Part shown: piece after piece, positions 5,278-31,413 of the stretch
Layout: every line of letters begins with the position of its first letter
Position numbering within the stretch: position 1 is the stretch's first letter
Source of the DNA: Thermoanaerobaculia bacterium
Lineage (GTDB): Bacteria; Acidobacteriota; Thermoanaerobaculia; Gp7-AA8
Length of the DNA: 32,162 nucleotides
Direction of reading: 5' to 3'
NCBI GenBank assembly: GCA_035276365.1
Contig: DATELS010000659.1
Location: 1 to 32,162, forward strand
Position numbers and translations under genes: made by a program
Notes under the pieces: generated by a model
What the model was told of the DNA's origin: nothing
The model's input: only the letters and a program-made list of their open reading frames with translations
The model's database searches: none

Positions 5278-5376
5278 GACGGATCACTGGCGGACTCGAA
5301 AATACGCAAGTCATTGAAATCATGACACTTGCGCGAATCTACATCATGGCAGCCGCCTTGCGCTTCAGGTCGCCCG

Positions 5377-6231: not shown

Positions 6232-6241
6232 CGCCCAACGC

Positions 6242-10407: not shown

Positions 10408-10419
10408 GGCCGTCGCCGC

Positions 10420-11583: not shown

Positions 11584-11586
11584 CGC

Positions 11587-11592
11587 TATAAT
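11587..11592 (+). promoter_or_regulatory. Consensus TATAAT -10 hexamer 8 nt upstream of the ATG at 11601; possible leaderless transcript
   Basis: Seen directly. There is no SD between it and the ATG. A weak -35-like GTGCAA lies 16 nt upstream. Confidence 0.3.
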
Positions 11593-11600
11593 CACGCCGA

Positions 11601-12107
11601 ATGTCCGCTCCGCGAGCCAAGCAGTTCCATACGCAGTGCCAGGAGGAGGTCTATCGCCAGATCAAGACCTACCTCGACGAGCTCACCGAAGAGCACTTCG
11701 ATGACGCCGATCACTGCGACTTCTATCTCAAATATGGCTCGACGGTGCTGGAGATCTCGATCGACCCGTACGAGGAAGACGACGCGATCATCGAGGTGCT
11801 CGCGTTCTGCGTGCAAGGCGTGGAGTCGAGCTTCGAGCTGATGCAGGAGCTCCTGCGCCTGAACTCGGAAGTGCCGCTGGGCGCCTTCAGCATGGTCTCC
11901 GGCGACATCTTCTTCTCCCACTCCTTCCTCGGCCGCCGCCTTCCGCCCGAGCAGCTCATCGCCTCGCTCGACAGCGTCGCCAGCACCTCGGATCTCTACG
12001 ACGAGCGCCTCGTCGCGCGCTACGGCGGCGAGACCGCGCTAGAGCGTCTGCGGAGCACCGCGAAACGGAACCGCTCGCTTGTGACGCAAACCCCACAGAA
12101 CAATTGA
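11601..12107 (+). CDS. YbjN / T3SS-chaperone-like family protein (putative sensory transduction regulator)
   Basis: The pattern YGSTVLEISID...IIEVLAFCV...ELMQELLRLNSEVPLGAFSM...IFFSHSFLG...EQL...YDERLVARYGG matches my recollection of the YbjN-like family. Confidence 0.55.
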   Translation: MSAPRAKQFHTQCQEEVYRQIKTYLDELTEEHFDDADHCDFYLKYGSTVLEISIDPYEEDDAIIEVLAFCVQGVESSFELMQELLRLNSEVPLGAFSMVSGDIFFSHSFLGRRLPPEQLIASLDSVASTSDLYDERLVARYGGETALERLRSTAKRNRSLVTQTPQNN

Positions 12108-12142
12108 AGGACGCGGCACATCCATTGCTCTATTCATCAGCG

Positions 12143-12748
12143 ATGAAGACTCGAATGCTGGTGATGAGCTGTGTGGCGTCCGCGCTTCTCTGCGGTGCAT
12201 GCACGGGCGGCAGCGAGACCGCGGCGTCGCAGGAAGCCGCGCCCGCGCGTGAAGCGCCCGCGACCGCGCAGGCACAGGCGCAGCAGGTCGACGCGCATCA
12301 GGCGATCGACACGATCAACAAGGCCATCCCGATCTACTCCGGCGCCGACTATCGCGATGACCTCACGCGCCGCGACGAAGTCATGATCCGCAGCCGCTAC
12401 GGAGCGGGTGCCGAGGTGTACACGCTGGCGACGGATGACTCGTTCCCGCAGGTCTATCACTACTACACGACGTATCTCGCGCAGTTCCGCGCCTTCCCCG
12501 CGCAGGACCCGCATCCGCCGGAAGGCAAGGACTGGCGCACGCTGGAAGTGAAACTGAACGACGCGATGCAGGACCCGTTCATCCCCGGCGAAGCGCTGGA
12601 TCGCAACGGCAAGCAGGTGACGCTGCAAATCGCGGAGACCGAGGCAGAGCCGAGGACGGTGATCCGGTACATCGTCACCCCCGCCCCGGCCGCGCCTGCG
12701 CCGGCCGTTGCGGCGAATCAGGCGACAGTTGCGACGGTTGCGCGGTAA
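12143..12748 (+). CDS. Secreted or lipoprotein-like hypothetical protein
   Basis: N-terminus MKTRMLVMSCVASALLCGACTGG is a signal peptide with a Cys-containing lipobox-like end. Ala/Pro/Gln-rich linkers follow. No recognisable domain. Confidence 0.6.
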   Translation: MKTRMLVMSCVASALLCGACTGGSETAASQEAAPAREAPATAQAQAQQVDAHQAIDTINKAIPIYSGADYRDDLTRRDEVMIRSRYGAGAEVYTLATDDSFPQVYHYYTTYLAQFRAFPAQDPHPPEGKDWRTLEVKLNDAMQDPFIPGEALDRNGKQVTLQIAETEAEPRTVIRYIVTPAPAAPAPAVAANQATVATVAR

Positions 12749-12827
12749 AGTCTCAAAGTCGTCAAGTCTCAAAGTCTCAAAGATGGTTCTCCTTTGAGAC
12801 TTGAAGACTTTGAGACTTAGAGACTTT
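12749..12827. repeat. AT-rich composite inverted repeat built from AGTCTCAAAG units; predicted long hairpin
   Basis: Forward units at 12749, 12765 and 12773; reverse units CTTTGAGACT at 12792 and 12808. 12749-12774 pairs with 12792-12817 at 25 of 26 positions. The repeat ends 3 nt before the USP ATG. Confidence 0.7.
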
Positions 12828-12829
12828 CG

Positions 12830-13609
12830 ATGTTCCGTCGCATCCTCATCCCCACCGACTTCTCGACCGCCGCGGAGTGGGCGTTCGGCGATGCTGTGCG
12901 CATTGCGGGGGCGAGTGGCGGGGAGCTGATCATCCTGCACGTGCGGATGACGTGGGCGTCGGATCCCGATCAGTTGCGCTTCCCTGCCGATCCGTCGCTG
13001 TACGAGTATGTGGAGCGGCAGGAGCTGGAGCGCGTGCGCGATCGCGTGCGTCGTGCGAACACGTCCGTCGCGTCGCGACTGATCGTGCGACAGGCGCCGA
13101 ATCCGGGCGCGGAGATCAGCAAAGTGGCGAAGGAAGAAGGCGTCGATCTGATCGTCATCGCGACGCATGCGCGGCATCACGTCGCGCATCTCTTCGTCGG
13201 CTCGACGACGATGTCCGTGCTCAGCGATCCTCCCGCGCCGGTGCTCGCCATCCGCTACGGCACGCGCAAGCGCACGTCGATGGACTGCGTCGTCGTGCCG
13301 GTGCACTTCGGACAATCGTCGCATCGCGCGCTCGAGCTCGCAGGACGCGAGGCGCGCGAAGTTCACCTCGTGACGGTCTGCGCGGAGAACGAACACGATC
13401 GCGCGCAGGAGCTGCTGCGCGATGCGTCCGCGAATCTGGCGAACGCGAAGACGGCAATCGTGCGCGGCACCGATCCCGAGGAGGAGATCATCCGCTACGC
13501 GTCGAAGGTCGACGCCGACGCGCTCTTCCTCAACGCCGCGATCGAACCGAGCCGCCGCAAGATCGACATGATCCGCCACGCGCCGCTGCCGGTGATGATC
13601 GTGCCGTAG
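12830..13609 (+). CDS. Universal stress protein, tandem USP domains
   Basis: RILIPTDFS...LIILHV...DLIVIATHARHHVAHLFVGSTT..., followed by a second USP-like half. Confidence 0.8.
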   Translation: MFRRILIPTDFSTAAEWAFGDAVRIAGASGGELIILHVRMTWASDPDQLRFPADPSLYEYVERQELERVRDRVRRANTSVASRLIVRQAPNPGAEISKVAKEEGVDLIVIATHARHHVAHLFVGSTTMSVLSDPPAPVLAIRYGTRKRTSMDCVVVPVHFGQSSHRALELAGREAREVHLVTVCAENEHDRAQELLRDASANLANAKTAIVRGTDPEEEIIRYASKVDADALFLNAAIEPSRRKIDMIRHAPLPVMIVP

Positions 13610-13610
13610 G

Positions 13611-16436
13611 TCACCCGCGTAGCGCCTCCACGAACTCCCCCACGCTCCCGAATCGTTCCGCCGGTTTCTTCGACAGCGCCCGATCGACCGCCGCGGCGAC
13701 GTGCACGGGCACCGAGCGCACGCGCTCGCGCAGCGGGATCATCGGCACGTCCGTGTGGCCGCGCACGACGGATGCGAGATCGGTCGCGCCGCCCAACGGG
13801 TGCTCGCCGGCGAGGAGCTCGTAGGCGATGATGGCGAGGCTGTACTGATCCGCCCTCGTGTCCGCCGCATGCCCGCTCAACACCTCGGGCGCCATGTACA
13901 TCAACGTCCCGACGACTCCCGCGCTGTGTCCCGACTGCACGAGCGTCGCCTCGTCTTCGCCGATCGGCGTCGTCATCTTCGCCAGTCCGAAGTCGAGCAC
14001 GCGCGCGCCCGTCGCGGCGTTGTGTCCGCGCACGATCATGATGTTCTCCGGCTTCAGATCGCGATGAATGACGCCGACGCGATGCGCCGCGTCGATCGCC
14101 TCGCCCACCGGACGCAGAATCGCGAGCGCGTCCTCGTAAGGCTGCGGTCCGGAGGCGATCGTCTTCCGCAGCGTGTCGCCGTCGAGGTACTCCATGACGA
14201 GATACGCGTGACCGGAAGGCAGCACGCCGAAGTCGTGAATCGTGACGATGGCCGGATGCCGCAGCCGCGCGACGATGCGCGCCTCACGCTCGAAGCGGGT
14301 GCGCATCGACGAGCTGCCGACGAGATGCGCGAGCAGCACCTTCACCGCGACCGGACGATTCAGCCGCGTCTGCGTGGCCTGATACACCGAGCCCATGCCG
14401 CCGCGTCCGAGGAGTCGGGTCACGACGTACTTTTCTTCGATGATGCGCGGCACGCCCGACTCGGGCACGAGCGTCTGCTGATCGTGCTCGCACTGACTCT
14501 CGTTCGCGGCATAGCAGCGACCGCAGCGCGGGCAGAGTTGCAGCGCGTCGCTGAGATGCAGATGCACGGGCGCGGACGACGTCGACGGCGACCACACCAG
14601 CGACGGCGACTGCTTGAGCCGCGTGTAGTCGAGCGTGAGCGCGAGCTGCGCGCCGAGCGTGCGCAGCAGATCGCGATCCTCCTTGCTGTACGGCTCTTCG
14701 GATTTGCGCTCGCCGAGGACCATCATGCCGACGAGACGCTTATCGATCATGAGCGGCACGATCAGATACGCGTCCGTCGCGCGCAGCCACTCGCGCTCCG
14801 ACTCGGGTAACCGTTGCAGCAGCGCGCGCGTGTGGCGGCTCGGGATATCGAGCGGATCGTCGTCGGCCGCGAGCAGCGTCGCCAGCGTGCCGTTCGCAGG
14901 CAACACTCCCGCGTCGGTCAGAACGCGGCCGTCTTCGCCGAAGTCCACCGCGCCGATGCTGAAGCCGCGATGCAACGCCGCGGCGTCGGGATCGAGCTGC
15001 CACAGCGAGAGATGCTTCGGATGCAGCGCGCGATCGATCTCATCGAGCGCGGCGCGCGCGATCGTCAGGATGTCCGAGCCGCTGCGGATCATCGACACGA
15101 CGTGCAGCAGCAGGTGCCGCGCGTCGTACTGCTCGCGGAAGAAGCGGCGGTCGAGCGACTCCAGCACGCGTTTGCGATAGCGAATGACGGCGACGAGAGG
15201 AAGGATGAGCAGGAGATACATCGCGGGCATGCCGGTGAGCAGCACGGCGAGCGAGTCGCGTCGATGCGCGTACAGAAACGCCGCGAGTCCGATGACCGGC
15301 AGCGACATCAGCACGAACAGCGTGCCGCGCGCGAGCGCGTACTGAATGCTGTTGCGCACGAGTACGCGGATGTTGAAGAGGCGGTGTCGCACGACCGCGT
15401 ACGCGTAGATCGCGGAGCCGAGCATCGTCGTCGGAGCCTGCAGCAGTCCGACGAATTCCTCCCACGCGCGTCCCGCGTGCAGGAGACTGACGAGCAGCCC
15501 GAGAATGAACGCGGTCGTGCCGGGGAGCAGGGAGAGGAACACGAGCTTGAGACGCCGCCGCGCGTTGGCGTTGCGCATGCGCGCGAAGCGCACGGCGAGC
15601 ACGATGAGCGACGCGAAGAGCAGCGACGCGCCGATCGTCCCGAATGCGTCGCCCCACGGCAGCGGCGCGGGACGCACGTCGCCGTCGAGACGCCGCAGTC
15701 CGTGCGCAATCGATTCAATGACGACGGGCACCGCGGCGAGGTACGGGACGAACTCGCACACGCGCCGCACCCGCACGCGCTCGGACGGAAAGATGATCGC
15801 GAAGTGGAGGCACAGCGGAAAGAAGCCCGCGCTGTAAATCGCGTCGACGAGGAAGAACGGCAACCGCAGCGACTGCGGCAGCGCCTCGAGGATCGCGCCG
15901 AAGCCGGACATGTTGTACGCGAACATGCCGCCCGCCCAGTACGCGAGCGAGAGCGCGGAGATGCGCGCGTCTTTGCTGTCCGGACGCAGCTTGAGCAGCG
16001 CGACGCTGAGCGCGAGCATCCAGATGTGGAGCGGGAAGTTGAGGTATCCCGAAATCGCGGAGACCGCCCTCCGCGTCCCTCCCCGCAAATCCCGCTGCCT
16101 CATCTCCTCGGACAGAATCGGCGTGACGAGCAACGTTCGCGCGACGCCGCCGCGCTCGAGGACGATCGGCACCGGCTCGCCCGCGCGCGTGAAGAAGAGA
16201 GGAACGACGCCGGGTCCGACCGCGTGTCCGTTGAACGAGACCACGACGTCGCCTTCGCGAATGCCCGCCGCTTCGGCAGGAGTGTCCGGGATGACGACCG
16301 TGACTTTGCGCGTCACGCGCGAGTAGTCGAAGCCGACCGTCGGCCGCGTGATGCGGCTGGTGAAGTTGAAGATGACCATCACTGCTGCGACGATCACCTG
16401 GATCCAGCAGAGCATCACCAGCGGCTTGGTTTTCAT
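13611..16436 (-). CDS. Membrane sensor Ser/Thr protein kinase (TM-PDZ-polytopic membrane region-GAF-Zn ribbon-Hanks kinase)
   Basis: PDZ-like DTPAEAAGIREGDVVVSFNG, then about 8 hydrophobic helices and a GAF-like region. Then CPRCGRCY...CEHD and a kinase domain with GRGGMGSVY, AVK, HRDLKPEN and DFGLAK. Confidence 0.85.
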   Translation of the reverse strand: MKTKPLVMLCWIQVIVAAVMVIFNFTSRITRPTVGFDYSRVTRKVTVVIPDTPAEAAGIREGDVVVSFNGHAVGPGVVPLFFTRAGEPVPIVLERGGVARTLLVTPILSEEMRQRDLRGGTRRAVSAISGYLNFPLHIWMLALSVALLKLRPDSKDARISALSLAYWAGGMFAYNMSGFGAILEALPQSLRLPFFLVDAIYSAGFFPLCLHFAIIFPSERVRVRRVCEFVPYLAAVPVVIESIAHGLRRLDGDVRPAPLPWGDAFGTIGASLLFASLIVLAVRFARMRNANARRRLKLVFLSLLPGTTAFILGLLVSLLHAGRAWEEFVGLLQAPTTMLGSAIYAYAVVRHRLFNIRVLVRNSIQYALARGTLFVLMSLPVIGLAAFLYAHRRDSLAVLLTGMPAMYLLLILPLVAVIRYRKRVLESLDRRFFREQYDARHLLLHVVSMIRSGSDILTIARAALDEIDRALHPKHLSLWQLDPDAAALHRGFSIGAVDFGEDGRVLTDAGVLPANGTLATLLAADDDPLDIPSRHTRALLQRLPESEREWLRATDAYLIVPLMIDKRLVGMMVLGERKSEEPYSKEDRDLLRTLGAQLALTLDYTRLKQSPSLVWSPSTSSAPVHLHLSDALQLCPRCGRCYAANESQCEHDQQTLVPESGVPRIIEEKYVVTRLLGRGGMGSVYQATQTRLNRPVAVKVLLAHLVGSSSMRTRFEREARIVARLRHPAIVTIHDFGVLPSGHAYLVMEYLDGDTLRKTIASGPQPYEDALAILRPVGEAIDAAHRVGVIHRDLKPENIMIVRGHNAATGARVLDFGLAKMTTPIGEDEATLVQSGHSAGVVGTLMYMAPEVLSGHAADTRADQYSLAIIAYELLAGEHPLGGATDLASVVRGHTDVPMIPLRERVRSVPVHVAAAVDRALSKKPAERFGSVGEFVEALRG

Positions 16437-19046: not shown

Positions 19047-19074
19047 CCCGAGGTTAGCAAGGATTCTTCAACCG

Positions 19075-19151
19075 GGGCGGTAGTTCAGCCGGTTAGAACG
19101 CCGGCCTGTCACGCCGGAGGTCGCGGGTTCGAGCCCCGTCCGCCCCGCCAA
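19075..19151 (+). tRNA. tRNA-Asp (anticodon GTC), CCA encoded
   Basis: Hand-folded cloverleaf: acceptor GGGGCGG/CCGCCCC, D stem GTTC/GAAC, anticodon stem CCGGC/GCCGG with loop CTGTCAC, T arm GCGGG-TTCGAGC-CCCGT. Confidence 0.9.
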
Positions 19152-19162
19152 AAAGCTCTCAT

Positions 19163-19570: not shown

Positions 19571-19622
19571 CCCGGCCTGTCATGTGCCGGAGGTCACGGC
19601 TTCGAGCTCTGTCCGCCCGCCA
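19571..19622 (+). repeat. Degenerate copy of the tRNA-Asp 3' half (att copy 2)
   Basis: CCCGGCCTGTCATGTGCCGGAGGTCACGGCTTCGAGCTCTGTCCGCCCGCCA aligns to the anticodon-arm-to-CCA part of the intact tRNA, with a 2-nt insertion and several substitutions. It is followed by AAAGCTCTCA and a hairpin at 19639-19657. Confidence 0.75.
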
Positions 19623-19860
19623 ATCTAAAGCTCTCACCAGCCGCCACTTTGGTGGCTCTTGCGTATATTAGTGCGTTGCGTTAGAAAGTTGTAACTCGCA
19701 AGCTGACTCGCAAGGTCGCGATTCTCTGGGACGCGAAAACCTGCGTGGAAACAGCTTCGCAAAGTGCGTGATGTTTCACGTTTCGGCGTGAATGTTCCAC
19801 GGAAAATGGGCGCCGACCCCATGCAGCCCAACGAGCCGGTGATCGGCGGCGGAACGGCCG
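19623..19860 (+). repeat. Conserved non-coding left-arm module, copy A (homologous to 26162-26345)
   Basis: Shared blocks: CTAAAG.T.TCACCAGCCGCCA hairpin; ACTCGCAAG direct repeats at 19694 and 19706 plus GACTCGCAAGGTCGCGA; TTTCGGCGTGAATGTTCCACGGAAAATGGGCGCCGAC at 19781-19817. Confidence 0.65.
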
Positions 19861-20355
19861 CCGGAGGTGATGGGTGGAAGAACGCGCAAACGCGTGCTTC
19901 CGCCTTGGTTAGCGATAATGGCGTGCACTCGCTGTTCTGTAGCCCTCCCCTATCCTGGAAGAAATAGTAGTCGTAAAGGGCGGGTAGGGATGTCCTCTTA
20001 GCAAACGGCGATCGCCGTGCGGTTCACCGCGGGCACCCGACCGAGCGCGTATCATAACGTCCACGCTGATAAGAAACTCTTCCTTGCACGAGAGCTCGTA
20101 CACGATCATGTTTCCCCGTTACGGCACGTTCGCAGACACCATCGCCGCGTCATGGAAGCGCCTAGCCATCGAGTCTCCGCGCGACGTGTGGCACATGATC
20201 GTGTTGGCGACACGAGCGAGCTCGCCGTGCGCGCGTTGCGCAGCGCGGCGTCACGAATTCGTCCCGTCCTACGTCGACTTGCTCACGCGCGTGACTTCGC
20301 GGCGCGCCGATCGACACGCACTGGATTACGTATCTCGACGCCAAGGGCATGCTCG

Positions 20356-23004
20356 ATGAGATGGTGGAGATCGTCGCGCGGCGAAGTGACGCGACATCTG
20401 CTTTTGGCGGTCGCAATAGCCGCGCTTTCGTGCCGCGGGCCGGTCGGAAAGCGCGATTCAGCAGGCTCGCCTGTCGATCGATTCCAAGCCGTCGAGGCGG
20501 CTGAGCGCGCATGGCGGCATCAGAAGACCGTGGACAATGCGGCGATGCGCGGCCGCGCACTGGAGTCAATACCGCTCCCGACGGCTGCGGCGAGCGCGTG
20601 GCTGGATGCGGGCGACACCAGGCGCGCCGCAGCGCTGACGCGGCCGACGCATCGGATGCGATGGGCACGCTGGCGCGACTCGTCGCGTGAGCTCGACGTC
20701 ACGATTGTTCGCGACTTCGCGCAGGAGTTGCGCATGTACGGCGAGGACGAACTGCTCGACGCGTGGGCACGGAACGGAGACGGGGCCTCGCTGACCGAAG
20801 CGGAACGGATCGGGAACGCTCTCGCGGCGGCGGGCGGCGACGCGCTCCTTGCGGATGCTACACGCATTCTTCGGCAGGCAAAAAACGCTCACGCCCTCGC
20901 CGAGGCACACCTACTTTATGCGCGTGGCCGGCGAAGCTACTCACGCCAGCAGATGACCCGAGCAATCAAGGAGCTTCACGCGGCAGAAACGCTTTTTTCC
21001 GCAGAACAAAGTCCATTCGCTTTCCGCGCCGCAATGTACGAAGCGACCGCCGCTTACTACGCGGCGCGCTATGACGACGCGCTTCGGAAGCTCGAGTCCA
21101 TTCCGTTGATTGAGAGGTACCCGGTCCTGTTCGGGCAGGTGCAGTGGGTGATCGGCCTGATCACTTTCTCCCGCGGACTGACGAACGAAGCGCTTGCGGC
21201 TTACAAGAGATCTTTTGCTGCCTTCGAACGCGCCGGAGAAACCGAAAGTCGTGCCGGAGTTGAAGCGTTGCTCGCGCAAACTTACCGTGTTGTCGGACAG
21301 GATGAGATCTCTGCGGAGTATCAGCGTCGAGCACTCACATCATTGGCGATCATTGGTAGCAGCCGGCGGAGCCACGCCATCCTTACCGATGCCGCGCGCG
21401 CCGCAGCATTACAAGGAGCGCCGCTTACGGCTCTCATCTTTCAAGAACGCGTCGTCACTCTTGCGCGACTGTCGAAGGATCCGGTATCGATCGCTGACGC
21501 GCTCATCGGGTACGCCGTGTATGCGGCGGCCGCCGGCGAGCGCGCGCAGGCCACGACCACGCTCGGCGAAGCGCGGCGAGCCGTCGCTGCTGTTTCTGAT
21601 TCAGCCATGCGCGACCGCTCCGTGGCGAACCTCATGGCGGCTGAAGCCACCGTGCTGCGTACATTCGACCCGGCGAGCGCGGCTACGGCGGCCGAAACGG
21701 CGATCGCGCATATGCAACGGCTCGGTCACCGGATTCGCCTCGTGCAACTTCACCTTGAGGCAGGGCGCGCGCTCGATCGCATCGCACGTCCAATCGACGC
21801 TCTTCGGCATTGGGAAGAGGGCATCACGGAATGCGAGCGCCAGCGTGACGACCTCACGGATGATGAATACAGGCGGACATATTTCGAAACGTGCCATTCG
21901 CTCTTCGAAGAGGCGATAGGCGCTCTGATCACGCGAAGGGAATGGGTACGGGCGCTGCGGCTCGCGGAACGAGGTCGCGCCCGATCCCTGTTGGACATGG
22001 TGATGAGGCGATCGCAGGCTGCATCGCCCCGCATGATCGCGCCGCGTGGAGTGTCGATCGTCGAGTATTCAGTGTTGCCTCACCGTCTCGTAACTTGGGT
22101 GGTGAACAGCAACCGTGTCTTCGTCGTGTCGCGAGCGATCGACCGCGATGCGCTGCGTCGTGAAATTGGCTCGCTCGCCGCTGCCCGGGCGAACGATCCC
22201 ACCTCTGCAAAGCGCGTTCATGAACTCTTGCTCGAGCCTGTGCGCGAACAACTTGCGCATCGTGTGATCTTCATCCCGGATGATCACATCTACCGCGCGC
22301 CGTTCGCCGCGTTGCAGGATGCGAACGGGCACTTCCTGGTCGAGCAACATGAGATTTCAATCGCGCCCAGCCTGACATTGCTCGATGCAATTCCGCCTGC
22401 GATACGGGGTGCGCCTCTTGCCGTGTTGATCGGCGCGACCAGCGGAACTGCCCGTCACCCATCCTTGGCTGCAGCGGCCCGCGAGATCCGGAGTCTCCTG
22501 TCGATTTACCCGGAGGCGGTCGTCGTCGAAGGGAAGAATGTCACGCGTGCGAATGCAGTGGAAGCGATGGGGCGTGGTTCGCTGATCCACTTCGCCGGCC
22601 ACGCCATCGAGGCCGCAGAAACCGTCGATCCAGCTCTCGTCCTCTACAACGAATTGCTCTATCCGCGGGACATTGCTGGCCTAACACTCAAGCAAACCAG
22701 ACTCGTAGTTCTCGGCGCTTGCGGAACCTCGGACGGTCGTATCGGCAGCGAAGGGCCCCTGAGCATAGGCCGTTCGTTTCTCGCTGCCGGCGCACGGCAG
22801 GTTCTCGCTACACTGTGGGCGATTGAAGACAATCGCTCCTCCCGATTGCTTGTGAATTTCCATAGGATGCTGGCACGTTACCCGCGCGCCGCGGCAGCAC
22901 TCCGCGAAGTGCAGATTCAGGCGATCCGCAGCGGAGCGACGGTTTCAGACTGGTCCGCTTTCGAAATACTTCAAACCACTTCTGACGAGGAGGCGTACGA
23001 ATGA
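20356..23004 (+). CDS. TPR-repeat CHAT-domain (caspase-like) protease, paralog 1, with N-terminal hydrophobic signal or anchor
   Basis: The C-terminal CHAT region has catalytic-dyad contexts LIHFAGHA and LVVLGACGTS. The central region is TPR-like. The N-terminus MRWWRSSRGEVTRHLLLAVAIAALSC is signal-like. Start is the ATG at 20356 or the GTG at 20386; the track start at 20017 gives an Arg-rich, non-protein-like extension. Confidence 0.85.
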   Translation: MRWWRSSRGEVTRHLLLAVAIAALSCRGPVGKRDSAGSPVDRFQAVEAAERAWRHQKTVDNAAMRGRALESIPLPTAAASAWLDAGDTRRAAALTRPTHRMRWARWRDSSRELDVTIVRDFAQELRMYGEDELLDAWARNGDGASLTEAERIGNALAAAGGDALLADATRILRQAKNAHALAEAHLLYARGRRSYSRQQMTRAIKELHAAETLFSAEQSPFAFRAAMYEATAAYYAARYDDALRKLESIPLIERYPVLFGQVQWVIGLITFSRGLTNEALAAYKRSFAAFERAGETESRAGVEALLAQTYRVVGQDEISAEYQRRALTSLAIIGSSRRSHAILTDAARAAALQGAPLTALIFQERVVTLARLSKDPVSIADALIGYAVYAAAAGERAQATTTLGEARRAVAAVSDSAMRDRSVANLMAAEATVLRTFDPASAATAAETAIAHMQRLGHRIRLVQLHLEAGRALDRIARPIDALRHWEEGITECERQRDDLTDDEYRRTYFETCHSLFEEAIGALITRREWVRALRLAERGRARSLLDMVMRRSQAASPRMIAPRGVSIVEYSVLPHRLVTWVVNSNRVFVVSRAIDRDALRREIGSLAAARANDPTSAKRVHELLLEPVREQLAHRVIFIPDDHIYRAPFAALQDANGHFLVEQHEISIAPSLTLLDAIPPAIRGAPLAVLIGATSGTARHPSLAAAAREIRSLLSIYPEAVVVEGKNVTRANAVEAMGRGSLIHFAGHAIEAAETVDPALVLYNELLYPRDIAGLTLKQTRLVVLGACGTSDGRIGSEGPLSIGRSFLAAGARQVLATLWAIEDNRSSRLLVNFHRMLARYPRAAAALREVQIQAIRSGATVSDWSAFEILQTTSDEEAYE

Positions 23005-23903
23005 GTGAGATCACGGTCGTCCTTTCCGGCATCGTCCTTTTGGTCTCGTCGAATGCGTATCTGACGACGGGCGGCAGCAACGCCATCAGCTCCGCGATCG
23101 CCGTTGAGGCGCGAACGCCCATCGACAGCGCCTACGACATAGACATTCCCGTCCACAACGCGATGTTGACCTTCCTGAAAGCGGATGTGGACGGAGGCGC
23201 AACCATTGACCCTGACAAGAGGCTTGAGCCCGCCAAAGAGGGAGATTCTCACGAAGGCGTTGACCTGATCGTGCTGCAGCTTCGCGGTGATCGTGTCCAG
23301 CTCGGCACGGGCGGCGCGGTCTGCGGTGGCTTACCCGCCTCAACGACGAACGCCCGCGACTCGTTGCAGACGCTGCCAAGACTCAGCGAAATTGTTCGGC
23401 CGGACGTGACACTGCGTTCCGGCACCTTTCCCGTCGGCACGAACTTCACGGGAATGGATAAAAGCCGCGTGGCGGCGTGGCTCGACATTCGGGGCGGACA
23501 TCTCCGGGCTACACACACAGAGGATGAACGCCCACGCTATGAGGAGGTGGAGTTCCGGCCTACGCGACGTCGTGCTCGAATTTCGCCACACGTGCTCTGG
23601 ACCGCCCCGGCGGGAGTAGATTGCGTCGTTGTCACACCGTTCGCCGCTGGAGGGAAAATGATCAAGATCGTTCTGAATCCTGATCGGGACATCCGCATCG
23701 GCTTTCACAACATGGCGGACATGTCGACGGGCGAGCTCGTACCGGGCATTGCGTACGACTTCGAGCTGTTCTATCGCCTCATCAACAATTCACCCGTTAT
23801 TCCTCCCCTCCCTTACACCTTGGCAGAAATCGAAATCGAGACGGGAGGTCCGGGTCCCGACGGCCTCACGGGCGTAAATTGCGGGCCGCCGCGTGTCCGT
23901 TAG
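23001..23903 (+). CDS. Hypothetical 300-aa protein translationally coupled to CHAT paralog 1
   Basis: The ATG overlaps the CHAT stop (ATGA at 23001-23004). GAGGAGG lies 7 nt upstream. The composition is protein-like, and I recognise no domain. Confidence 0.7.
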   Translation: MSEITVVLSGIVLLVSSNAYLTTGGSNAISSAIAVEARTPIDSAYDIDIPVHNAMLTFLKADVDGGATIDPDKRLEPAKEGDSHEGVDLIVLQLRGDRVQLGTGGAVCGGLPASTTNARDSLQTLPRLSEIVRPDVTLRSGTFPVGTNFTGMDKSRVAAWLDIRGGHLRATHTEDERPRYEEVEFRPTRRRARISPHVLWTAPAGVDCVVVTPFAAGGKMIKIVLNPDRDIRIGFHNMADMSTGELVPGIAYDFELFYRLINNSPVIPPLPYTLAEIEIETGGPGPDGLTGVNCGPPRVR

Positions 23904-24353: not shown

Positions 24354-25367
24354 TTACTCGAAGAGCCTATAGACCAGGCCTGCAAGGAGCTGTTTGTCGT
24401 ATTCGAACCCGAGGTCTTCGCCTGTGCGATACCGAATAACGAATCCAATCTTCTTATCCGGCTGCATCATCTTGAGCGCTATGTCGGCATGGAACTCAAT
24501 GTCGCGATCGTCGCCCTTCATCGGCTTGCCAGCCTTGAGGTCTACGGAAATGGAGTACGGAAATGCCGGACGTTTCGGACAGGGCTTAGTGGGGTCGCAA
24601 AGGAACGCCTTGAAGTCCCGAATGAATTTGCGGCCGGCCGCGCGGTCCGTCGCAATCGACAACGGGATCTCGGCAGTGAAAGCGAGTTGAATTTGATCGA
24701 TTGCGATCGTCTTGTCCGAGGCGGCAGGATTCTTCGTGTCGTTGTCGACGAATGCGTTGTAATAGGTCAGAGCGAGCATCGGGTTTTCGACGTCGGCTCC
24801 CGTAATCCCTTTGAGGGCCATCAGTGCTGGAATCTGGAAAACGACCTTCGTGCCGAGGCCCCCGATCAGTACACCTTTCCAGTCCGCGTCATCGTTTTTG
24901 GCGATGTCGGCGAAGCGTCCGCGCGCCTCAGCGAACGGAATCAGATCAAACCCGGTCCTGCCCTCGCCGAGCTCGCAGCTGCCGAACGGATCGAAATCGT
25001 CTTCGACGAGTTTAATGGTTGCGAGCTCCACTCCCAGATCCGCGACCCGATCCTTGTCGTCGGCATAACTGAACTGTCCATTGAGCTTGTAGTCGACATA
25101 CGGCGTCCAGCCTGCGTCGATGTCGCCCCCGCTGTTCCAAAGCAGATCGCTTCCTTTGACAACGAGCGCCTCCGTGCCAACTTCAACGTCGAACGGTGTC
25201 GATTCACCGCTGGGAATGTCCGCTTTCTCGAGTAGGCCGCATTCTGCTGCCTTGTCCGTGTTGTTTATCGTCGTGTCTTTCTTAGTGTCTGTCTTCGTTT
25301 CCTGTGCCCAGCCGGGGGCCGTGAGAAGGGCCGCCAGGACGGTGACACTCACAATTCGTGCGCGCAT
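24354..25367 (-). CDS. Secreted beta-rich hypothetical protein (possible outer-membrane protein)
   Basis: AGGAG lies 5 nt before the ATG at 25367. Signal peptide MRARIVSVTVLAALLTAPGWA/QE. Alternating hydrophobic strands run towards the C-terminus (IGFVIRYRTGE, LLAGLVYRLFE), and there are four Cys. Confidence 0.7.
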   Translation of the reverse strand: MRARIVSVTVLAALLTAPGWAQETKTDTKKDTTINNTDKAAECGLLEKADIPSGESTPFDVEVGTEALVVKGSDLLWNSGGDIDAGWTPYVDYKLNGQFSYADDKDRVADLGVELATIKLVEDDFDPFGSCELGEGRTGFDLIPFAEARGRFADIAKNDDADWKGVLIGGLGTKVVFQIPALMALKGITGADVENPMLALTYYNAFVDNDTKNPAASDKTIAIDQIQLAFTAEIPLSIATDRAAGRKFIRDFKAFLCDPTKPCPKRPAFPYSISVDLKAGKPMKGDDRDIEFHADIALKMMQPDKKIGFVIRYRTGEDLGFEYDKQLLAGLVYRLFE

Positions 25368-25375
25368 AGGCACTC

Positions 25376-25780
25376 CTAGTAGAGAGCTTTGATGTCGGTT
25401 TCGTCGAGGCCGAGAGCCGACGCGAAGAACATGGCCGAGTCGAAATCGTCCAGCCTGCCGCCAGCGCTCATCAGGTCGGCATCGCTCGAATCACCAATAC
25501 TCTGCGCTTGGGACAAAACGAGAGGTTTCATGTGTGAAAACAGGAATCCGGCGTATTGACGGACTTTCTGGATGCCGGCCGCACGAAGCTCCGCGGGATG
25601 TGCCGTCTGCCATGAAATGCCTTCCTTGAGCAGCCGGTTCGGCAGGAACTTGTTCATCAACCCGGCCTCTCGCACCCATTCGTGCGGCTCATCGAGTTCC
25701 TGGGCAATAGGGTCGTCGGGCATCTTCTTCCAGCGAGCTACCGCCAGACGCATCGCGATCACCTTCGGGTCTGTCGCCAT
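25376..25780 (-). CDS. Hypothetical 134-aa cytosolic protein, first gene of the minus-strand pair
   Basis: Strong SD (AAAGGAGAACACTATG). The stop lies 8 nt from the next gene's ATG. No recognisable domain. Confidence 0.65.
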   Translation of the reverse strand: MATDPKVIAMRLAVARWKKMPDDPIAQELDEPHEWVREAGLMNKFLPNRLLKEGISWQTAHPAELRAAGIQKVRQYAGFLFSHMKPLVLSQAQSIGDSSDADLMSAGGRLDDFDSAMFFASALGLDETDIKALY

Positions 25781-26097: not shown

Positions 26098-26161
26098 CAG
26101 CGGTTAGAACGCGCGCCTGTCACGCCGGAGGTCGCGGGTTCGAGCCCCGTCGGCCCCGCCA
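26098..26161 (+). repeat. Partial copy of tRNA-Asp, D-loop to CCA (att copy 3)
   Basis: CAGCGGTTAGAACGCGCGCCTGTCACGCCGGAGGTCGCGGGTTCGAGCCCCGTCGGCCCCGCCA differs from the intact gene by 1 gap and 3 substitutions, with a perfect run of more than 30 nt. It lacks the 5' acceptor strand, and its anticodon stem is disrupted. Confidence 0.85.
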
Positions 26162-26345
26162 AACTAAAGTTTTCACCAGCCGCCAATTCGGCGGCTTTCG
26201 TGTTTTGTGGCGGATCGCAAGAAATCGCAGACTCGCAAGGTCGCGAGTTTCGCCAGCGGAAATTTGCGCAGGCCCGCGACCAGAAGGCAAAAGTTAAGCA
26301 TTTCGGCGTGAGTGGTCCACGGAAAAAGTGCGCCGACGAAGCGGC
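26162..26345 (+). repeat. Conserved non-coding left-arm module, copy B (homologous to 19623-19860)
   Basis: Hairpin AGCCGCC-AATTC-GGCGGCT with a T-rich tail. ATCGCAAG, ATCGCAG and ACTCGCAAG repeats at 26214-26239 plus GGTCGCGA. TTTCGGCGTGAGTGGTCCACGGAAAAAGTGCGCCGAC at 26301-26337. Confidence 0.65.
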
Positions 26346-26523: not shown

Positions 26524-27231
26524 TTGTTTGCTGCGCAATGTCGGACCGCTGGCTGCAACGAGCAAATAAGCACGCTCCTCGATGCGGTGCATAAGCCTGC
26601 CGCCCCACACGATGAAGGCTCATTTTTCGGCGCCTTGCTCGACGTGCGCTTTGGGCCGGAGGGACTGAGGGATCACGTCGTCGCTATCCTCAATCGGCTA
26701 AAAGATCGCCAGATACACGACACCGACCATGCCCTCTTTGATGCTCTGTGTTATGTCGCCGCCTGTCATGCCGTCGGCATCACTGGCATCAATGAGAAAG
26801 TCCTCGCGGATCTAGTCAATATTCCTAACGGCTGGGTGCAAACACGGGTTGTGAATCCACTGGGCGAAGAAGCTGCAGCCGTTCGAAGCGCGGCACACGT
26901 AGTAACGCGTCACAGTAAAGTAGCTCGCGCGATCCTAGTTGCCGCCGAAAAGGATCTTGGTCCTGATATCGCAGAAATCTGGAGCTGCATAGTTCGCCAA
27001 ACCGCACGAACCGCGAAGAATGGCGGAGTCAGCCATGAGACTCATTCGAAGGTTCTCCACGCAGGCGCAAAATTGCAACGCGCCCTGCCGCAGCAGTTTA
27101 CTGAGCATCGTCGTAAGGAAATCGCCGTTGCGGCAGCAACGGCATCAATCGCAGCCGAACCCGATCGGCTTTCCCGCATTGTTGATCTTAGTAAAACCTA
27201 TCGAAACGCAAGGGATTACACCGCTGAATAG
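26524..27231 (+). pseudogene. Fragment of a larger gene of unknown function; no ATG start
   Basis: The ORF opens with TTG and has no SD. It is followed 2 nt later by a second ORF in another frame, and G+C is lower. The helical, protein-like sequence reads like an internal or C-terminal part of a large protein. Confidence 0.4.
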
Positions 27232-27732: not shown

Positions 27733-28263
27733 TTGATGATGCTACGCGAATTCTTTCCCATCGCGTCGAGAGTTTCACCCGCTAGCCTCCGACCTGTCAG
27801 CGCGACTGCTACGAAGAAAACCCTATTCGAATTTCGGAGTGACTTCGATGCACGGATTCATGCGGGCATTCAGCGGGTTTTGGCGAAGGCATGGCAGGCT
27901 GTGCCCGACCCTATGGCGGAGGAAGACCGTTTCAAGATCGCCAAACGAAATGCGCAAGACGAAATCGCGAGGTTGTCACCAAGCATCAAACGACAGGCGG
28001 AGCGTATTTCGAAACGCAGAAGTGGGAACCGCTTAAAGTGCCCAGTCAAACCGACGAAGGTGCCGCGTCATAAGACCGGGCATCGCGCCCGAAAAGCTAC
28101 CTGCTTCCAGCACGTCCAACGCCTGTCGAGCCATGAACCCGTGACAAATACCATGACCAGTTCAACGCTATTGACACAGCCCGAACTGGCGGCGACATGC
28201 GACTCTCTGCGCCAACGCGGACGGGATCGCGATCCGGCCACGCGTGCATTAGCGCAGTGTTAG
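27733..28263 (+). CDS. Questionable hypothetical ORF (176 aa) running into att copy 4
   Basis: TTG start, basic low-complexity middle, no recognisable domain. It may be non-coding or degraded. Confidence 0.2.
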   Translation: MMMLREFFPIASRVSPASLRPVSATATKKTLFEFRSDFDARIHAGIQRVLAKAWQAVPDPMAEEDRFKIAKRNAQDEIARLSPSIKRQAERISKRRSGNRLKCPVKPTKVPRHKTGHRARKATCFQHVQRLSSHEPVTNTMTSSTLLTQPELAATCDSLRQRGRDRDPATRALAQC

Positions 28264-28316
28264 ACCTGCGGCCTGTCACGCCGGAGGTCGCGGGTTCAAG
28301 CTGGTCCGCCGCGCCA
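28259..28316 (+). repeat. Partial copy of the tRNA-Asp 3' half (att copy 4)
   Basis: GTTAGACCTGCGGCCTGTCACGCCGGAGGTCGCGGGTTCAAGCTGGTCCGCCGCGCCA has a 28-nt perfect run (GGCCTGTCACGCCGGAGGTCGCGGGTTC) shared with the intact tRNA. The T-arm and acceptor are diverged. Confidence 0.8.
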
Positions 28317-28331
28317 AACTTCGCACTTGAT

Positions 28332-28416: not shown

Positions 28417-31413
28417 ATGTTCGCGCTCCTCGCCATCCTCGGCGTCCTGCACGCAACGCCGGGGCCGCAGCGCGATGGCGTTGTCACCGCGTTTCTCGAC
28501 AGCCTCGCTGGCGCGAGTACCGATCCCCTCCTCCCCATCGCCTCGCCGGACGCGCTCGCGCTGCGCGATTGGCAACTTCTGCGCGCCGATCTCGAAACCT
28601 ACTCCTGCGTGACGATCCATCGTTCCGTCGTGACGGAAGCGCTGCGGACGGAGAACGAAGTCTCGTATGTCATCACCGTCGACGCGACGGGGATCGCGCG
28701 GGGCGCCGGGCATCGACCGTTGCGCGTGCCGAGCCGGTGGCACGTCGACGCCGTCCGCAACGCCGACGGCTGGCGGTTCCGCCGCGCGCTCCTCGGCTAC
28801 CGCGTCACCGCGCGGCAGTACATGAAAGAGCGCGATTGGACGCAGGAGCAGATCGAAGTCGTGGGCGGCGCGGAGCTCGAAGGCCTCTTGAAGACGATGG
28901 CCGATGAGCTGTCCGATCACGCCGAGCGCTTCATTCCGCAGATCGAGACACTGCGTGCGATCGCGCGCCGTCGCGGCCTCGCTCACGCCGACGTTTTCAC
29001 GACGCGCATGCTCTCCGTCGCCGCGCTGGCCTGGGGCAAGTCGCAGCAGGCGCGCGACTACGCGGAGGAAGCCTACGAGCTCGCAGAACAAACCGGAGAC
29101 GCCGACGATCTCGCCACCGTCGGCTTGACCCTCGGCACCACGCGATGGGTCGCGGGCGCCAACGACGCAGCGGATGCCTATCGCTGGTCCGCGTCGCTCA
29201 TGGATGTCGCCGACGATCCGCGCGCTTCGATGAAAGCGATGTACATGCACGGACTGCTCTTGATCTCGCACGGAGCGGTGCGCGGCGCAGTCGCGTCATT
29301 CAATGATCTCGCCGCGGCGGCGGAACGCTTCGATTGGACGGAGGGGCGATCGATCGCGGCGACGCAACTGTTCGCCGCGTATGAGGCCGTGCGCGAGACC
29401 GCGGGTGCACGCGGCGCCGCGCGTGATGCGCTCCATTACGCGGAGCGCCTGCACAACGAGCGCATGATCTCGATCGCCCGCTACAACCTCGCGATGGCGG
29501 AGTACGCGAGCGGCGATCGGGAAGCCGCGTCGGCGTTGATGACGATGCTCGCGGCGAGCAAGACCGCGACTCCCGCGGCGGCCGGGGCCGCGCGCCATCA
29601 ACTCGCGGAGATGTTGCTGCAAAGCGGCAAGATCGCGGAAGCGGACGCCGAGCTCACGCGCGCGCTCGAGGTGTCCCGCACTTCGCAAGACGTTCGGCTC
29701 ATCGCGTCGGTTTTGGATTCGATCGCACGTCTGAATCTGCAAGCCGGACGGCCCGAAGAGGCATTGCGCGTCGCCGACGAGGCCGAGGCGGTGCTGCGCA
29801 GCAAGCCGTCGGCCGTGGGCATGATGGGCATCGATCCGACGTGGAGCGTGCTCGCAACACGCGGCCGAGCATTGCGGCGCACGGGGCGCGTCGCGGACGC
29901 GCTGCTCGCGCTACAAATGTCGGTCGAACGCGTCGAGGCGCGGCGCGCGGAGATCGAAGCGGACGAGCTGACGCTCGCCTCGTTCATGCAGGACAAAGCC
30001 ACGCCGTATCGCGAGCTCGCGTCGCTGCTCATCGAGCAGGGACGCGTTCCCGAAGCCCTCATCATCGCCGAGCGTCTCCGCGCCCGCGCCCTCGGCACCT
30101 CCGTCGCGCGCGGCGGCGTCGAGCGTCTGCCGCCGATGTCCGCAGCGGACAAGAAGCGCTATGACGCGCTCAACGCCGCCATCGCGGAGCTGAATCTGAA
30201 GCTGCTCGCACATCGCGACGACTCGCTGCGCCGCACACTGCAAGAGCAGCGGCTCGAGCTGCGCGCATTCCTGTTCACGCTGTACGCGCAGCGGCCGGAG
30301 CTGAGCGCGCGCCGCGCGGAAGATCCGCAGATCGTGCTGGACGACCCGCACCGCCTCCTCCCCGACCGGGCGGAGGCGCTGCTGACGTTCACCGTGCATG
30401 ACGACGAGACGTTCGCGTTCTTCATCGAGCGACACGGCGAGCAGCTCGACGTCACGGTGCGCCGCGTGCGCGTGCGGCGCGATGCGCTCGAGCGCCAGGT
30501 CGACGAGCTCGTGTCGGCGATCGGACGACGCAGCCTCGACTATCGCCGCGGCGCACGCGCGTTGTACGACCTTCTCGTGGCCGGGTTCGAGCCGCGCAGG
30601 CGCGCGAAGAAGCTGTTGACGATCGTCCCGGACGGCGTTCTGTGGCGGCTTCCCTTCCAGACGTTGCTGCGACCCGATGGCGAGCCGTTGGTGACGCGAG
30701 TGGCGATTGCATACGCGCCGTCGCTCGCGCTACTGCGCGCGGAGCGACACGAACCGCATGCATCGCCCGATCTGCGACTGCTGGCCGTTGCCGATCCCTC
30801 CGTGCCGCACGCGACGCAGACGGCGGCGCGCACTCTCGCCGGCGCCGCGCGACTGACGCCGCTTCCCGATGCGCGGCGCGAGGTACGCGAGATCGCGGCG
30901 TTGTACGACAACCGCAGCCGCGTCCTGATCGGCGCCGATGCTTCGGAGGCGGCAGTGAAGCGGCAGCTCGGCGACGCGCGCATTCTCCACCTCGCGACGC
31001 ACGGCCTCATCGACGATGCGTCGCCGATGCATTCGGCGGTCGTGCTCAACGCCACCGGCGCGGACGACGGATTGCTCGAAGCGCGCGAGATCCTCGAGCT
31101 CGGACTGAGCGCCGACCTGGCCATCCTCTCCACGTGCGAATCGGCGCGCGGCGGCTTGAGTCCGGGCGAAGGCATGATCGGACTCTCGTGGGCACTGATG
31201 GTGGCGGGATGCCGCAACACGATGGTGAGCCATTGGAAAGTGGCGTCGCGCAGCACCGCCGATCTGATGATCGCGTTTCATCGAGCGCTGAAGCGTCCCG
31301 GCGCGACGTACGCGTCCGCGCTGCGCGAGGCGCAACTGGCGATGCTGCGCACGAACGAGTTTCGCCATCCGTTCTACTGGTCGCCGTTCGTCCTGATCAC
31401 GACTTCCCAGTAG
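28417..31413 (+). CDS. TPR-repeat CHAT-domain (caspase-like) protease, paralog 2
   Basis: The 998-aa ORF has a hydrophobic N-terminus MFALLAILGVLHA and a long TPR-like middle. The CHAT region has ILHLATHG and LAILSTCESARG dyad contexts and a C-terminal FYWSPFVL. G+C matches the core genome. Confidence 0.85.
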   Translation: MFALLAILGVLHATPGPQRDGVVTAFLDSLAGASTDPLLPIASPDALALRDWQLLRADLETYSCVTIHRSVVTEALRTENEVSYVITVDATGIARGAGHRPLRVPSRWHVDAVRNADGWRFRRALLGYRVTARQYMKERDWTQEQIEVVGGAELEGLLKTMADELSDHAERFIPQIETLRAIARRRGLAHADVFTTRMLSVAALAWGKSQQARDYAEEAYELAEQTGDADDLATVGLTLGTTRWVAGANDAADAYRWSASLMDVADDPRASMKAMYMHGLLLISHGAVRGAVASFNDLAAAAERFDWTEGRSIAATQLFAAYEAVRETAGARGAARDALHYAERLHNERMISIARYNLAMAEYASGDREAASALMTMLAASKTATPAAAGAARHQLAEMLLQSGKIAEADAELTRALEVSRTSQDVRLIASVLDSIARLNLQAGRPEEALRVADEAEAVLRSKPSAVGMMGIDPTWSVLATRGRALRRTGRVADALLALQMSVERVEARRAEIEADELTLASFMQDKATPYRELASLLIEQGRVPEALIIAERLRARALGTSVARGGVERLPPMSAADKKRYDALNAAIAELNLKLLAHRDDSLRRTLQEQRLELRAFLFTLYAQRPELSARRAEDPQIVLDDPHRLLPDRAEALLTFTVHDDETFAFFIERHGEQLDVTVRRVRVRRDALERQVDELVSAIGRRSLDYRRGARALYDLLVAGFEPRRRAKKLLTIVPDGVLWRLPFQTLLRPDGEPLVTRVAIAYAPSLALLRAERHEPHASPDLRLLAVADPSVPHATQTAARTLAGAARLTPLPDARREVREIAALYDNRSRVLIGADASEAAVKRQLGDARILHLATHGLIDDASPMHSAVVLNATGADDGLLEAREILELGLSADLAILSTCESARGGLSPGEGMIGLSWALMVAGCRNTMVSHWKVASRSTADLMIAFHRALKRPGATYASALREAQLAMLRTNEFRHPFYWSPFVLITTSQ

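Follow-up and report, generated by a model that had tools for sequence, protein, structure and literature searches.

The 32,162-nt contig DATELS010000659.1 of a Thermoanaerobaculia bacterium (GenBank assembly GCA_035276365.1), analysed over its whole length and referred to here as the window, raises the question of what a caspase-like protease gene of the CHAT family does together with the gene that overlaps its stop codon and encodes a 300-aa orphan protein, the partner. Comparison with related loci supports the designation of the CHAT gene and the partner gene as a dedicated, co-inherited module. In our best reading, which we infer from the export signals, the conserved residues and the gene order described below, an envelope-anchored CHAT protease would be paired with a cognate regulator or substrate that docks through its C-terminal tail, and the pair would often head a cassette of secreted proteases. 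The initial annotation of this locus had instead proposed a defence or cell-death module. The features on which the argument turns are as follows.

20356-23004 (+): CHAT gene, 882 aa, helical-repeat region plus CHAT (caspase-like, clan CD) protease (open reading frame list, Pfam, homology)
20398-20433 (+): N-terminal hydrophobic segment LLLAVAIAALSC of the CHAT protein, aa 15-26, after the basic MRWWRSSR and with a lipobox-like ALS-C (lipoprotein-type signal pattern)
22204-22962 (+): CHAT catalytic domain, aa 617-869 (Pfam PF12770)
22588-22602 (+): HFAGH with the predicted catalytic His, aa 745-749 (sequence and alignment)
22714-22725 (+): GACG with the predicted catalytic Cys, aa 787-790 (sequence and alignment)
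22987-22993 (+): Shine-Dalgarno sequence GAGGAGG of the partner gene, within the 3' end of the CHAT gene, 7 nt before the partner ATG
23001-23004 (+): ATGA overlap of the CHAT stop (TGA, 23002-23004) and the partner start (ATG, 23001-23003)
23001-23903 (+): partner gene, 300-aa orphan protein, predicted to be all-beta (profile search, alignment, AlphaFold2 model)
23010-23051 (+): conserved hydrophobic N-terminus ITVVLSGIVLLVSS of the partner, a core beta-hairpin in the AlphaFold2 model
23841-23903 (+): disordered C-terminal tail of the partner, aa 281-300, with TGVNCGP at nt 23868-23888 (model confidence, motif conservation)

The partner gene lies directly 3' of a CHAT gene in 13 of 13 family members with readable upstream DNA. 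These are the window copy, P0002, P0003, P0004, P0041, P0043, P0044, P0046, P0028, P0019, P0016, P0008 and a member from an Acidobacteriota metagenome-assembled genome (MAG); P0040 stands outside the count, its contig being too short to hold an upstream gene. The initial annotation had named a lack of such linkage elsewhere as the finding that would speak against it, and the linkage clearly proved to be present. The linked CHAT genes encode proteins of ~880-1120 aa that are homologous to the window CHAT over nearly their whole length, with full-length identities of 28-52%. CHAT identities of 51, 52, 47, 33, 30 and 28% pair with partner identities of 56, 43, 36, 31, 32 and 23%, respectively, so that by these values the divergence of the two genes is parallel. 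The surroundings of the cassettes vary, including an ABC transporter, a TonB receptor with HigBA, trp and aro genes, two-component systems, arginase, caspase/VWA genes (locus L010), and TIR together with other CHAT genes. The last of these, L019, is the only cassette neighbourhood that resembles a conflict or defence island, with a TIR-domain protein, an S24 peptidase, a CHAT fragment and a large TPR-CHAT gene at 9957-14987 beside the cassette.

A second, convergent cassette was observed at 4890-7704 (-) of L005, a contig that also carries a close homolog of the window pair. It is arranged as a CHAT C-terminus directly followed by a 273-aa remote paralog of the partner and then by a papain-like peptidase with a lipoprotein signal. 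The paralog was matched to the partner family by hhalign (probability 96%, E = 1.5e-9), which means that the partner superfamily reaches further than HMMER searches reveal.

The CHAT gene of the window is well defined at its catalytic end. Pfam CHAT (PF12770) matches aa 617-869 with E = 1.4e-46 and 159.7 bits, against a cut-off of 24 bits, and the dyad His and Cys are invariant when the window protein is aligned with four homologs (H858/H862 and C902 in the numbering of ORF-995 in that alignment). By domain and dyad the protein is a bona fide member of the CHAT family, which bears out the earlier description of an ~880-aa CHAT with an intact dyad in HFAGH and GACG. That description had labelled it TPR-CHAT; the CHAT half of the label holds; for the TPR half, no match to the window protein reached significance in Pfam. 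Its relatives show weak or faint matches to TPR_12, TPR_2 or TPR_11. A TPR label for the window CHAT is thus weakly supported, and for its N-terminal ~570 residues "helical-repeat region" is the better name. No Pfam match to SAVED or another sensor domain was obtained for the window CHAT.

At its 5' end the CHAT reading frame spans 20017-23004 (+) and stays open upstream of ATG 20356 as far as GTG 20017; the 882 aa are counted from ATG 20356, which is a plausible start. The stretch 5' of this ATG has no homology to the relatives. The window CHAT is without the first ~110 residues of its closest homologs, comprising their anchor and first helical repeat, and a search for remnants of these residues 5' of ATG 20356 recovered none, similarity setting in from ~nt 20452. 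At the 3' end, the ATGA overlap and the GAGGAGG within the CHAT gene can be read directly in the sequence, as originally reported, and would imply translational coupling of the CHAT and partner genes. Across the homologous cassettes, the CHAT-partner junctions range from -20 to +22 nt.

Partner relatives were sought with a profile in 1.84 billion cluster representatives, where 38 partner proteins were found at E <= 1e-3, 24 of them at E <= 1e-30. Most of the 38 are ~280-330 aa long and align end-to-end with the query profile; eight (103-201 aa) look like fragments. A word-indexed protein search, a method that recovers few members of this family, returned three relatives with 54-58% identity on three other contigs, and identity falls to about 23% in more distant contigs. 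Judged from these matches, the partner is a real, rare gene family, beyond chance. Two members carry a taxon label and both are Acidobacteriota (a MAG and Thermoanaerobaculia bacterium HYC87919.1), and all others come from soil or forest metagenomes. A scan of GTDB genomes gave one locus, two metagenome scans gave no new relatives, and none were found among the viral contigs and plasmids searched. The family has so far been seen only in uncultured soil genomes of Acidobacteriota type, and it is rare.

The initial annotation had seen no known motif in the partner, and this remained so in every library tried: the window partner has no match in Pfam, NCBIfam, PADLOC or PHROG, the 33 aligned members have no meaningful match in Pfam, NCBIfam or PADLOC, and the family profile has no match among PDB sequences. 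In the 33-sequence alignment G10, H52, L94, G96, F185, P187, P271 and C294 are invariant, and C108, W160, C208, N237, D253, E255, Y258 and a PPxPY motif are nearly so. After PPxPY comes a linker of very variable length and then, a few residues from the C-terminus, [DN]xx[TS]G[VIL]NCGP, the best-conserved linear motif of the family. The tail motif is DNCPPLADE in the most distant clade and GFCGPESRP in the remote paralog, leaving Cys-[Gly/Pro]-Pro as the tail core common to even the most distant clades. Total Cys counts of the partners are odd (3 or 5), with the tail Cys as the universal one. Further cysteines are specific to clades. An invariant, zinc-ribbon-like C-x4-C ... H ... C-x2-C is found in the clade linked to DUF6345 (P0041-P0047, columns about 108-134) and is missing from the window clade, and a different clade carries, within the linker, two additional Cys spaced 4-5 residues apart.

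A usable model of the partner needed the 33-sequence alignment. With four sequences the predicted local distance difference test (pLDDT) averaged 42, and with 33 sequences AlphaFold reached a pLDDT of 89.9 and a predicted TM-score (pTM) of 0.88, with 235 residues at or above 90. The model is almost entirely beta. Residues 4-16 at the N-terminus form a core hairpin with a pLDDT of about 95 (strands 4-10 and 12-16, pLDDT 94-96), in agreement with the hydrophobic, beta-like N-terminus noted from the translation. This N-terminus was considered as a signal peptide and rejected on its lack of a basic n-region, the invariant G10 and the confidently modelled core hairpin; it is acidic or uncharged and carries no export signal. 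Residues 281-300, including NCGP, are disordered, with pLDDT below 50 at 281-287 and 294-300. Foldseek searches of the model had a best E of 0.25 (TM-score about 0.1) in PDB, with none at E <= 0.001, and a best E of 0.32 in BFVD, so that in comparison with these two collections the modelled fold may be new. The partner was also considered as a gasdermin, a known pore-forming toxin or a Csx30-like protein, and family, PDB-sequence and Foldseek (PDB, BFVD) searches gave no match to any of these. Since Foldseek found nothing significant for a confident model, we do not retain the earlier suggestion of a gasdermin-like or pore-forming partner.

The opposite end of the CHAT protein bears on where the pair would act. 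A hydrophobic N-terminal segment is found in 12/12 full-length CHATs linked to a partner. A lipoprotein signal pattern fits the segment of the window protein (MRWWRSSRGEVTRH-LLLAVAIAALS-C) and those of its homologs from L002 and L005, and the remainder each form a single transmembrane or signal-anchor helix. The charges flanking these anchors lean towards an N-in orientation and are partly ambiguous. The short N-terminus of the window CHAT is not homologous to those of its closest relatives and is again lipoprotein-like (20017-20451 region), with a part that aligns to the homologs' helix (HLLLAVAIAALS versus HVLNDLAAAYLT). That a non-homologous N-terminus is hydrophobic once more suggests that the anchor matters. 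The CHAT protein would thus be tethered to the cell envelope through a lipoprotein or signal-anchor N-terminus, and its helical-repeat and CHAT parts most likely lie outside the cytoplasm.

Most relatives carry a third gene, usually on the same strand and 0-130 nt after the partner. Its product is DUF6345 in four distinct loci (L007/L008, L010, L011 and L012), a trypsin-like peptidase in two (L014, L019), a reprolysin-like metallopeptidase in two more (L017/18 and L015/16), on the same strand in one and on the opposite strand in the other, and the papain-like peptidase mentioned above in the L005 paralog cassette. All of the third-gene products have signal-like starts, and three have lipobox-like motifs. 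The DUF6345 genes (8898-10412 in L007/L008, 8901-10433 in L011 and 9031-10452 in L012) stand 3' of the partner in its most distant clade and encode proteins of 470-520 aa with signal or lipoprotein N-termini. Their conserved ETHG and LHSCE motifs recall a Cys/His hydrolase. No match to DUF6345 was found in PDB, the literature is essentially silent on it (one passing mention), and tblastn detected no DUF6345 remnant in the window, L001/L002, L003 or L005.

The island position of the pair was examined through the repeats of the tRNA-Asp gene and through GC content at third codon positions (GC3). The boundaries are as follows.

19090-19152 (+): 3' part of the tRNA-Asp gene (19074-19150), left attachment-site copy of the stacked islands
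26101-26163 (+): direct repeat of the tRNA-Asp 3' end, 95% identical, right boundary of the CHAT-partner segment

The CHAT-partner pair sits in a segment of ~6.5-7 kb that ends at the 26101-26163 repeat. Further degenerate copies of the 63-nt tRNA-Asp 3' end occur at 28257-28319 (71%) and, as a 41-nt partial copy, at 19586-19626. The DNA following two of the copies is related (19616-19817 resembles 26155-26337), and the arrangement is the signature of stacked integrations at one tRNA. GC3 is 0.67 in the CHAT gene and 0.70 in the partner gene, compared with resident-like values of 0.84 in a second CHAT gene and 0.88 in a kinase gene. Because of the tRNA repeats and the low GC3, horizontal acquisition of the pair is well supported, which agrees with its earlier placement on an island. 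Among the suitably sized open reading frames (ORFs) of 19.1-28.4 kb there was no match to an integrase or recombinase, and an Rfam scan gave only two tRNAs.

The second helical-repeat/TPR-CHAT gene lies at 28417-31413 (+), beginning about 100 nt after the last attachment-site-like tRNA-Asp repeat, and encodes 998 aa (Pfam CHAT 3.4e-67, TPR_12 9e-12). It has only the catalytic domain in common with the island CHAT (27% identity over 382 aa), and no partner-like ORF is present 3' of it. The other island ORFs, at 24354-25373 (-), 25376-25780 (-), 26524-27231 (+) and 27733-28263 (+), include one of 339 aa with a clear signal peptide. They gave no convincing match in Pfam, PADLOC, NCBIfam or PHROG (27733-28263 was compared with Pfam only); the one PHROG match of 26524-27231 is at chance level (E 0.038). 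None of them was found beside the cassettes on other contigs. Among the resident genes are adjacent PilB/T2SSE-type ATPases at 6242-8551 (-) and 8599-10407 (-), one of which has a GAF domain at its N-terminus, and, at 13611-16436 (-), a 941-aa PDZ-GAF-Ser/Thr kinase.

Several described systems combine a cysteine protease with a dedicated neighbour. In the staphopain-staphostatin operons of Staphylococcus (scpAB, sspABC), a secreted cysteine protease is co-transcribed with a cytoplasmic beta-barrel inhibitor, and the operons also encode secreted proteases of other classes that form an activation cascade. The module described here likewise has a cysteine protease gene with predicted export followed by a gene for a signal-less all-beta protein, and it may include secreted proteases of other catalytic classes; the specificity of staphostatin for its own protease has a counterpart in the co-divergence of partner and CHAT. 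It differs in that the protease is a CHAT of clan CD and not a papain-like enzyme, the partner is three times the size of staphostatin and has no sequence or fold match to PDB, which holds staphostatin structures, and the putative docking element is a C-terminal tail instead of a barrel loop.

In the type III-E Craspase, the TPR-CHAT protease Csx29 cleaves the neighbouring Csx30. The module resembles it in placing a helical-repeat and CHAT protease beside an adjacent gene, on whose product it may by analogy act. Unlike in Craspase, no Cas7-11/gRAMP, CRISPR array, Csx30/Csx31 or RpoE was found in the window and 20 related loci (ORFs, Pfam). The window CHAT scores 20.8 bits against the Csx29 model NCBIfam NF041237 (300-bit cut-off), over residues 784-833 only, and unlike Csx29 it has a membrane or lipoprotein N-terminus. 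The partner, in contrast to Csx30, is unrelated to any solved structure searched (PDB). Bacterial gasdermin systems, in which a gasdermin is paired with a caspase-like or CHAT protease, are similar in that the protease gene adjoins one for a ~300-aa partner with a short, possibly removable C-terminal element. They differ in gene order and in the export signals of the protease, and none of the 33 partner members has a gasdermin Pfam match, nor does the model have a Foldseek match to PDB, gasdermins included.

Borvo, a single-gene CHAT system of PADLOC, consists of a large protein (BovA) with a C-terminal CHAT domain, as in our module. BovA is the only PADLOC model touched by the window CHAT (23.4 bits, E = 4.8e-6, residues 748-843). 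The match is partial, covering profile positions 512-604 of 720 in the catalytic core, and unlike in Borvo a second gene is present in every cassette examined. A proteolytic cascade from SAVED-CHAT to PCaspase has been described for a type III-B CRISPR/CBASS locus (bioRxiv 10.1101/2023.06.23.546230). The encoding of CHAT with a second protease in our relatives similarly suggests a cascade. The window differs in having no SAVED sensor, no cyclic-nucleotide module and no adjacent caspase gene; the second proteases, unlike PCaspase, bear signals, vary in class or are DUF6345, and do not occur in the window copy; and the invariant partner protein would be an addition. The CHAT protein thus falls outside Csx29/Craspase, Borvo, SAVED-CHAT and gasdermin systems. 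By analogy, the module may work like systems of a clan-CD protease with a dedicated neighbour. The orphan partner, the CHAT anchor, the Cys-Gly/Pro-Pro tail and the interchangeable signal-bearing third gene appear to be new in comparison with them.

We therefore return to what the partner does for its protease. That it is a cognate regulatory subunit of its CHAT is the reading that we rank first, tentatively, as possible rather than probable. The pair would be a self-contained, horizontally mobile protease module, in which the N-terminus of the newly made CHAT protein, a lipoprotein signal or signal anchor, would tether it to the envelope. The signal-less partner, translated along with it, would consist of a compact all-beta domain and a flexible Cys-[Gly/Pro]-Pro tail, and this tail might act as a pseudo-substrate, binding either to the active site of CHAT or to the groove of its helical repeats. 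With the partner docked, the protease would stay inactive inside the cell that makes it until export or a trigger, a logic for which the staphopain and staphostatin operons would be the closest precedent. If the CHAT domain is exported, a cytoplasmic partner would be no physiological substrate of it after export. Gly or Pro followed by Pro after a Cys is a poor scissile context and suits docking or a pseudo-substrate better, and the partner tail fits a docking or pseudo-substrate peptide rather than a cleavage site. Because most relatives add a signal-bearing protease or DUF6345, the ancestral cassette looks like a proteolytic cascade; it would have been an envelope or extracellular cascade headed by CHAT, with the window copy as a minimal two-gene version. 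With signals on both the CHAT proteins and the third-gene products, the data speak at least as much for proteolysis at the envelope or outside the cell, under a regulator in the cytoplasm, as for an intracellular abortive-infection switch. Localisation, tail docking, the inhibitory direction and the biological role (antagonism, nutrition or defence) are all inferred. Several observations weigh against this reading. The lipoprotein signals were assigned by script with a PROSITE-like pattern and not by a trained predictor, and for roughly one CHAT in three the flanking charges leave the topology ambiguous. A third gene is missing from the window, L001/L002, L003 and L020 cassettes, and the cascade part is accordingly not universal. 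DUF6345 was considered as a clan-CD peptidase from its ETHG...LHSCE, and hhalign against the CHAT alignment, at a probability of 0.1%, did not support this; no link of DUF6345 to any peptidase clan emerged. The 300-aa partner also has many invariant polar residues (H52, D97, R186, N237, D253, E255 and three Cys); it is more elaborate than known dedicated inhibitors and could itself be an enzyme or effector.

The linkage, coupling and co-divergence of the two genes would also suit a protease-substrate switch, in which a tethered CHAT facing the cytoplasm senses a cue through its helical repeats and cuts the tail or linker of the partner, freeing the beta domain as an effector. The third-gene proteases would be additional outputs, and the whole would resemble Csx29-Csx30 or protease-gasdermin pairs. 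In being built of a globular domain, a disordered linker of variable length and a conserved end motif, the partner recalls autoinhibited effectors released by cleavage, and there is precedent for CHAT acting on the product of a neighbour and for a cascade from CHAT to a second protease. The L019 relative beside a TIR gene, an S24 peptidase and other CHAT genes, and the island location of the window copy, argue in the same direction. The model, however, is unlike gasdermins, pore-forming toxins, Csx30 or anything in PDB or BFVD, and the partner has no membrane-active segment besides the core hairpin. PADLOC matches were missing among the 33 members, the export- or lipoprotein-like N-termini would part the enzyme from a cytoplasmic partner, signal-bearing third-gene products are unusual for abortive-infection effectors, and the Gly/Pro-Pro after the invariant Cys makes a poor cleavage context. 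We regard this switch as doubtful. A strict anti-phage abortive-infection or cell-death system, in which the proteolytically activated partner kills the cell, is very unlikely by comparison. It draws on the island location and low GC3, on the occurrence of CHATs in Borvo, Craspase and gasdermin systems together with the weak BovA and Csx29 matches, and on the TIR and caspase/VWA genes near the L019 and L010 cassettes. Those matches, however, are confined to the generic CHAT core (for BovA, 23 bits and about 95 of 720 positions; for Csx29, 20.8 bits where the cut-off is 300), and other neighbourhoods are housekeeping (trp, aro, ABC transporter, arginase). The partner family was not found in viral contigs or plasmids, Foldseek gave no match to a toxic fold in PDB or BFVD, and the protease and accessory proteins carry export signals. 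The defence or cell-death assignment of the initial annotation was thus not borne out, with PADLOC blank for 33 partner members and the CHAT only grazing BovA and Csx29 in its catalytic core.

It is unlikely that the partner is an enzyme, a metal- or redox-binding protein or an export or maturation chaperone that is encoded beside the proteases as neither substrate nor inhibitor. The conserved polar or metal-type residues H52, C108, C208, C294, D253 and E255 would fit such a role, as would the clade-specific Cys clusters (C-x4-C...C-x2-C and the linker Cys pair) and the apparent constancy with which a signal-less protein is encoded with signal-bearing ones. Neither by sequence nor by fold, however, does the partner resemble any family of enzymes or chaperones, and its strongest conservation lies in the disordered end motif, which is typical of a docking peptide. 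The regulatory subunit could be extended to an undescribed envelope cascade of caspase-like type, in which the anchored CHAT is gated by the new-fold partner through a Cys-Gly/Pro-Pro latch (cysteine-switch-like or pseudo-substrate) and then activates interchangeable secreted Ser, Zn or Cys proteases. We consider this extension rather unlikely. If true, bacteria would have, outside the cytoplasm, a counterpart of caspase cascades that serves antagonism, predation or defence, and the partner would stand for a protein fold and a class of CHAT regulator or effector that are both new.

A role as switches in bacterial immunity and cell death is emerging for CHAT and caspase-like proteases, and to our knowledge very few of their partners or substrates have been described. 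The partner family, present in none of Pfam, NCBIfam, PADLOC, PHROGs and PDB, merits a family definition. Its practical value is limited, the family being rare and so far known from uncultured soil bacteria. What the module adds is a subfamily of CHATs whose obligate partner co-evolves with them and has an unrecognised fold, together with a likely protease anchor and a swappable third gene. Should the partner prove to be a latch or a substrate, the module would provide a compact new model for the silencing and release of clan-CD proteases, and it would carry CHAT biology beyond immunity in the cytoplasm to the cell envelope.

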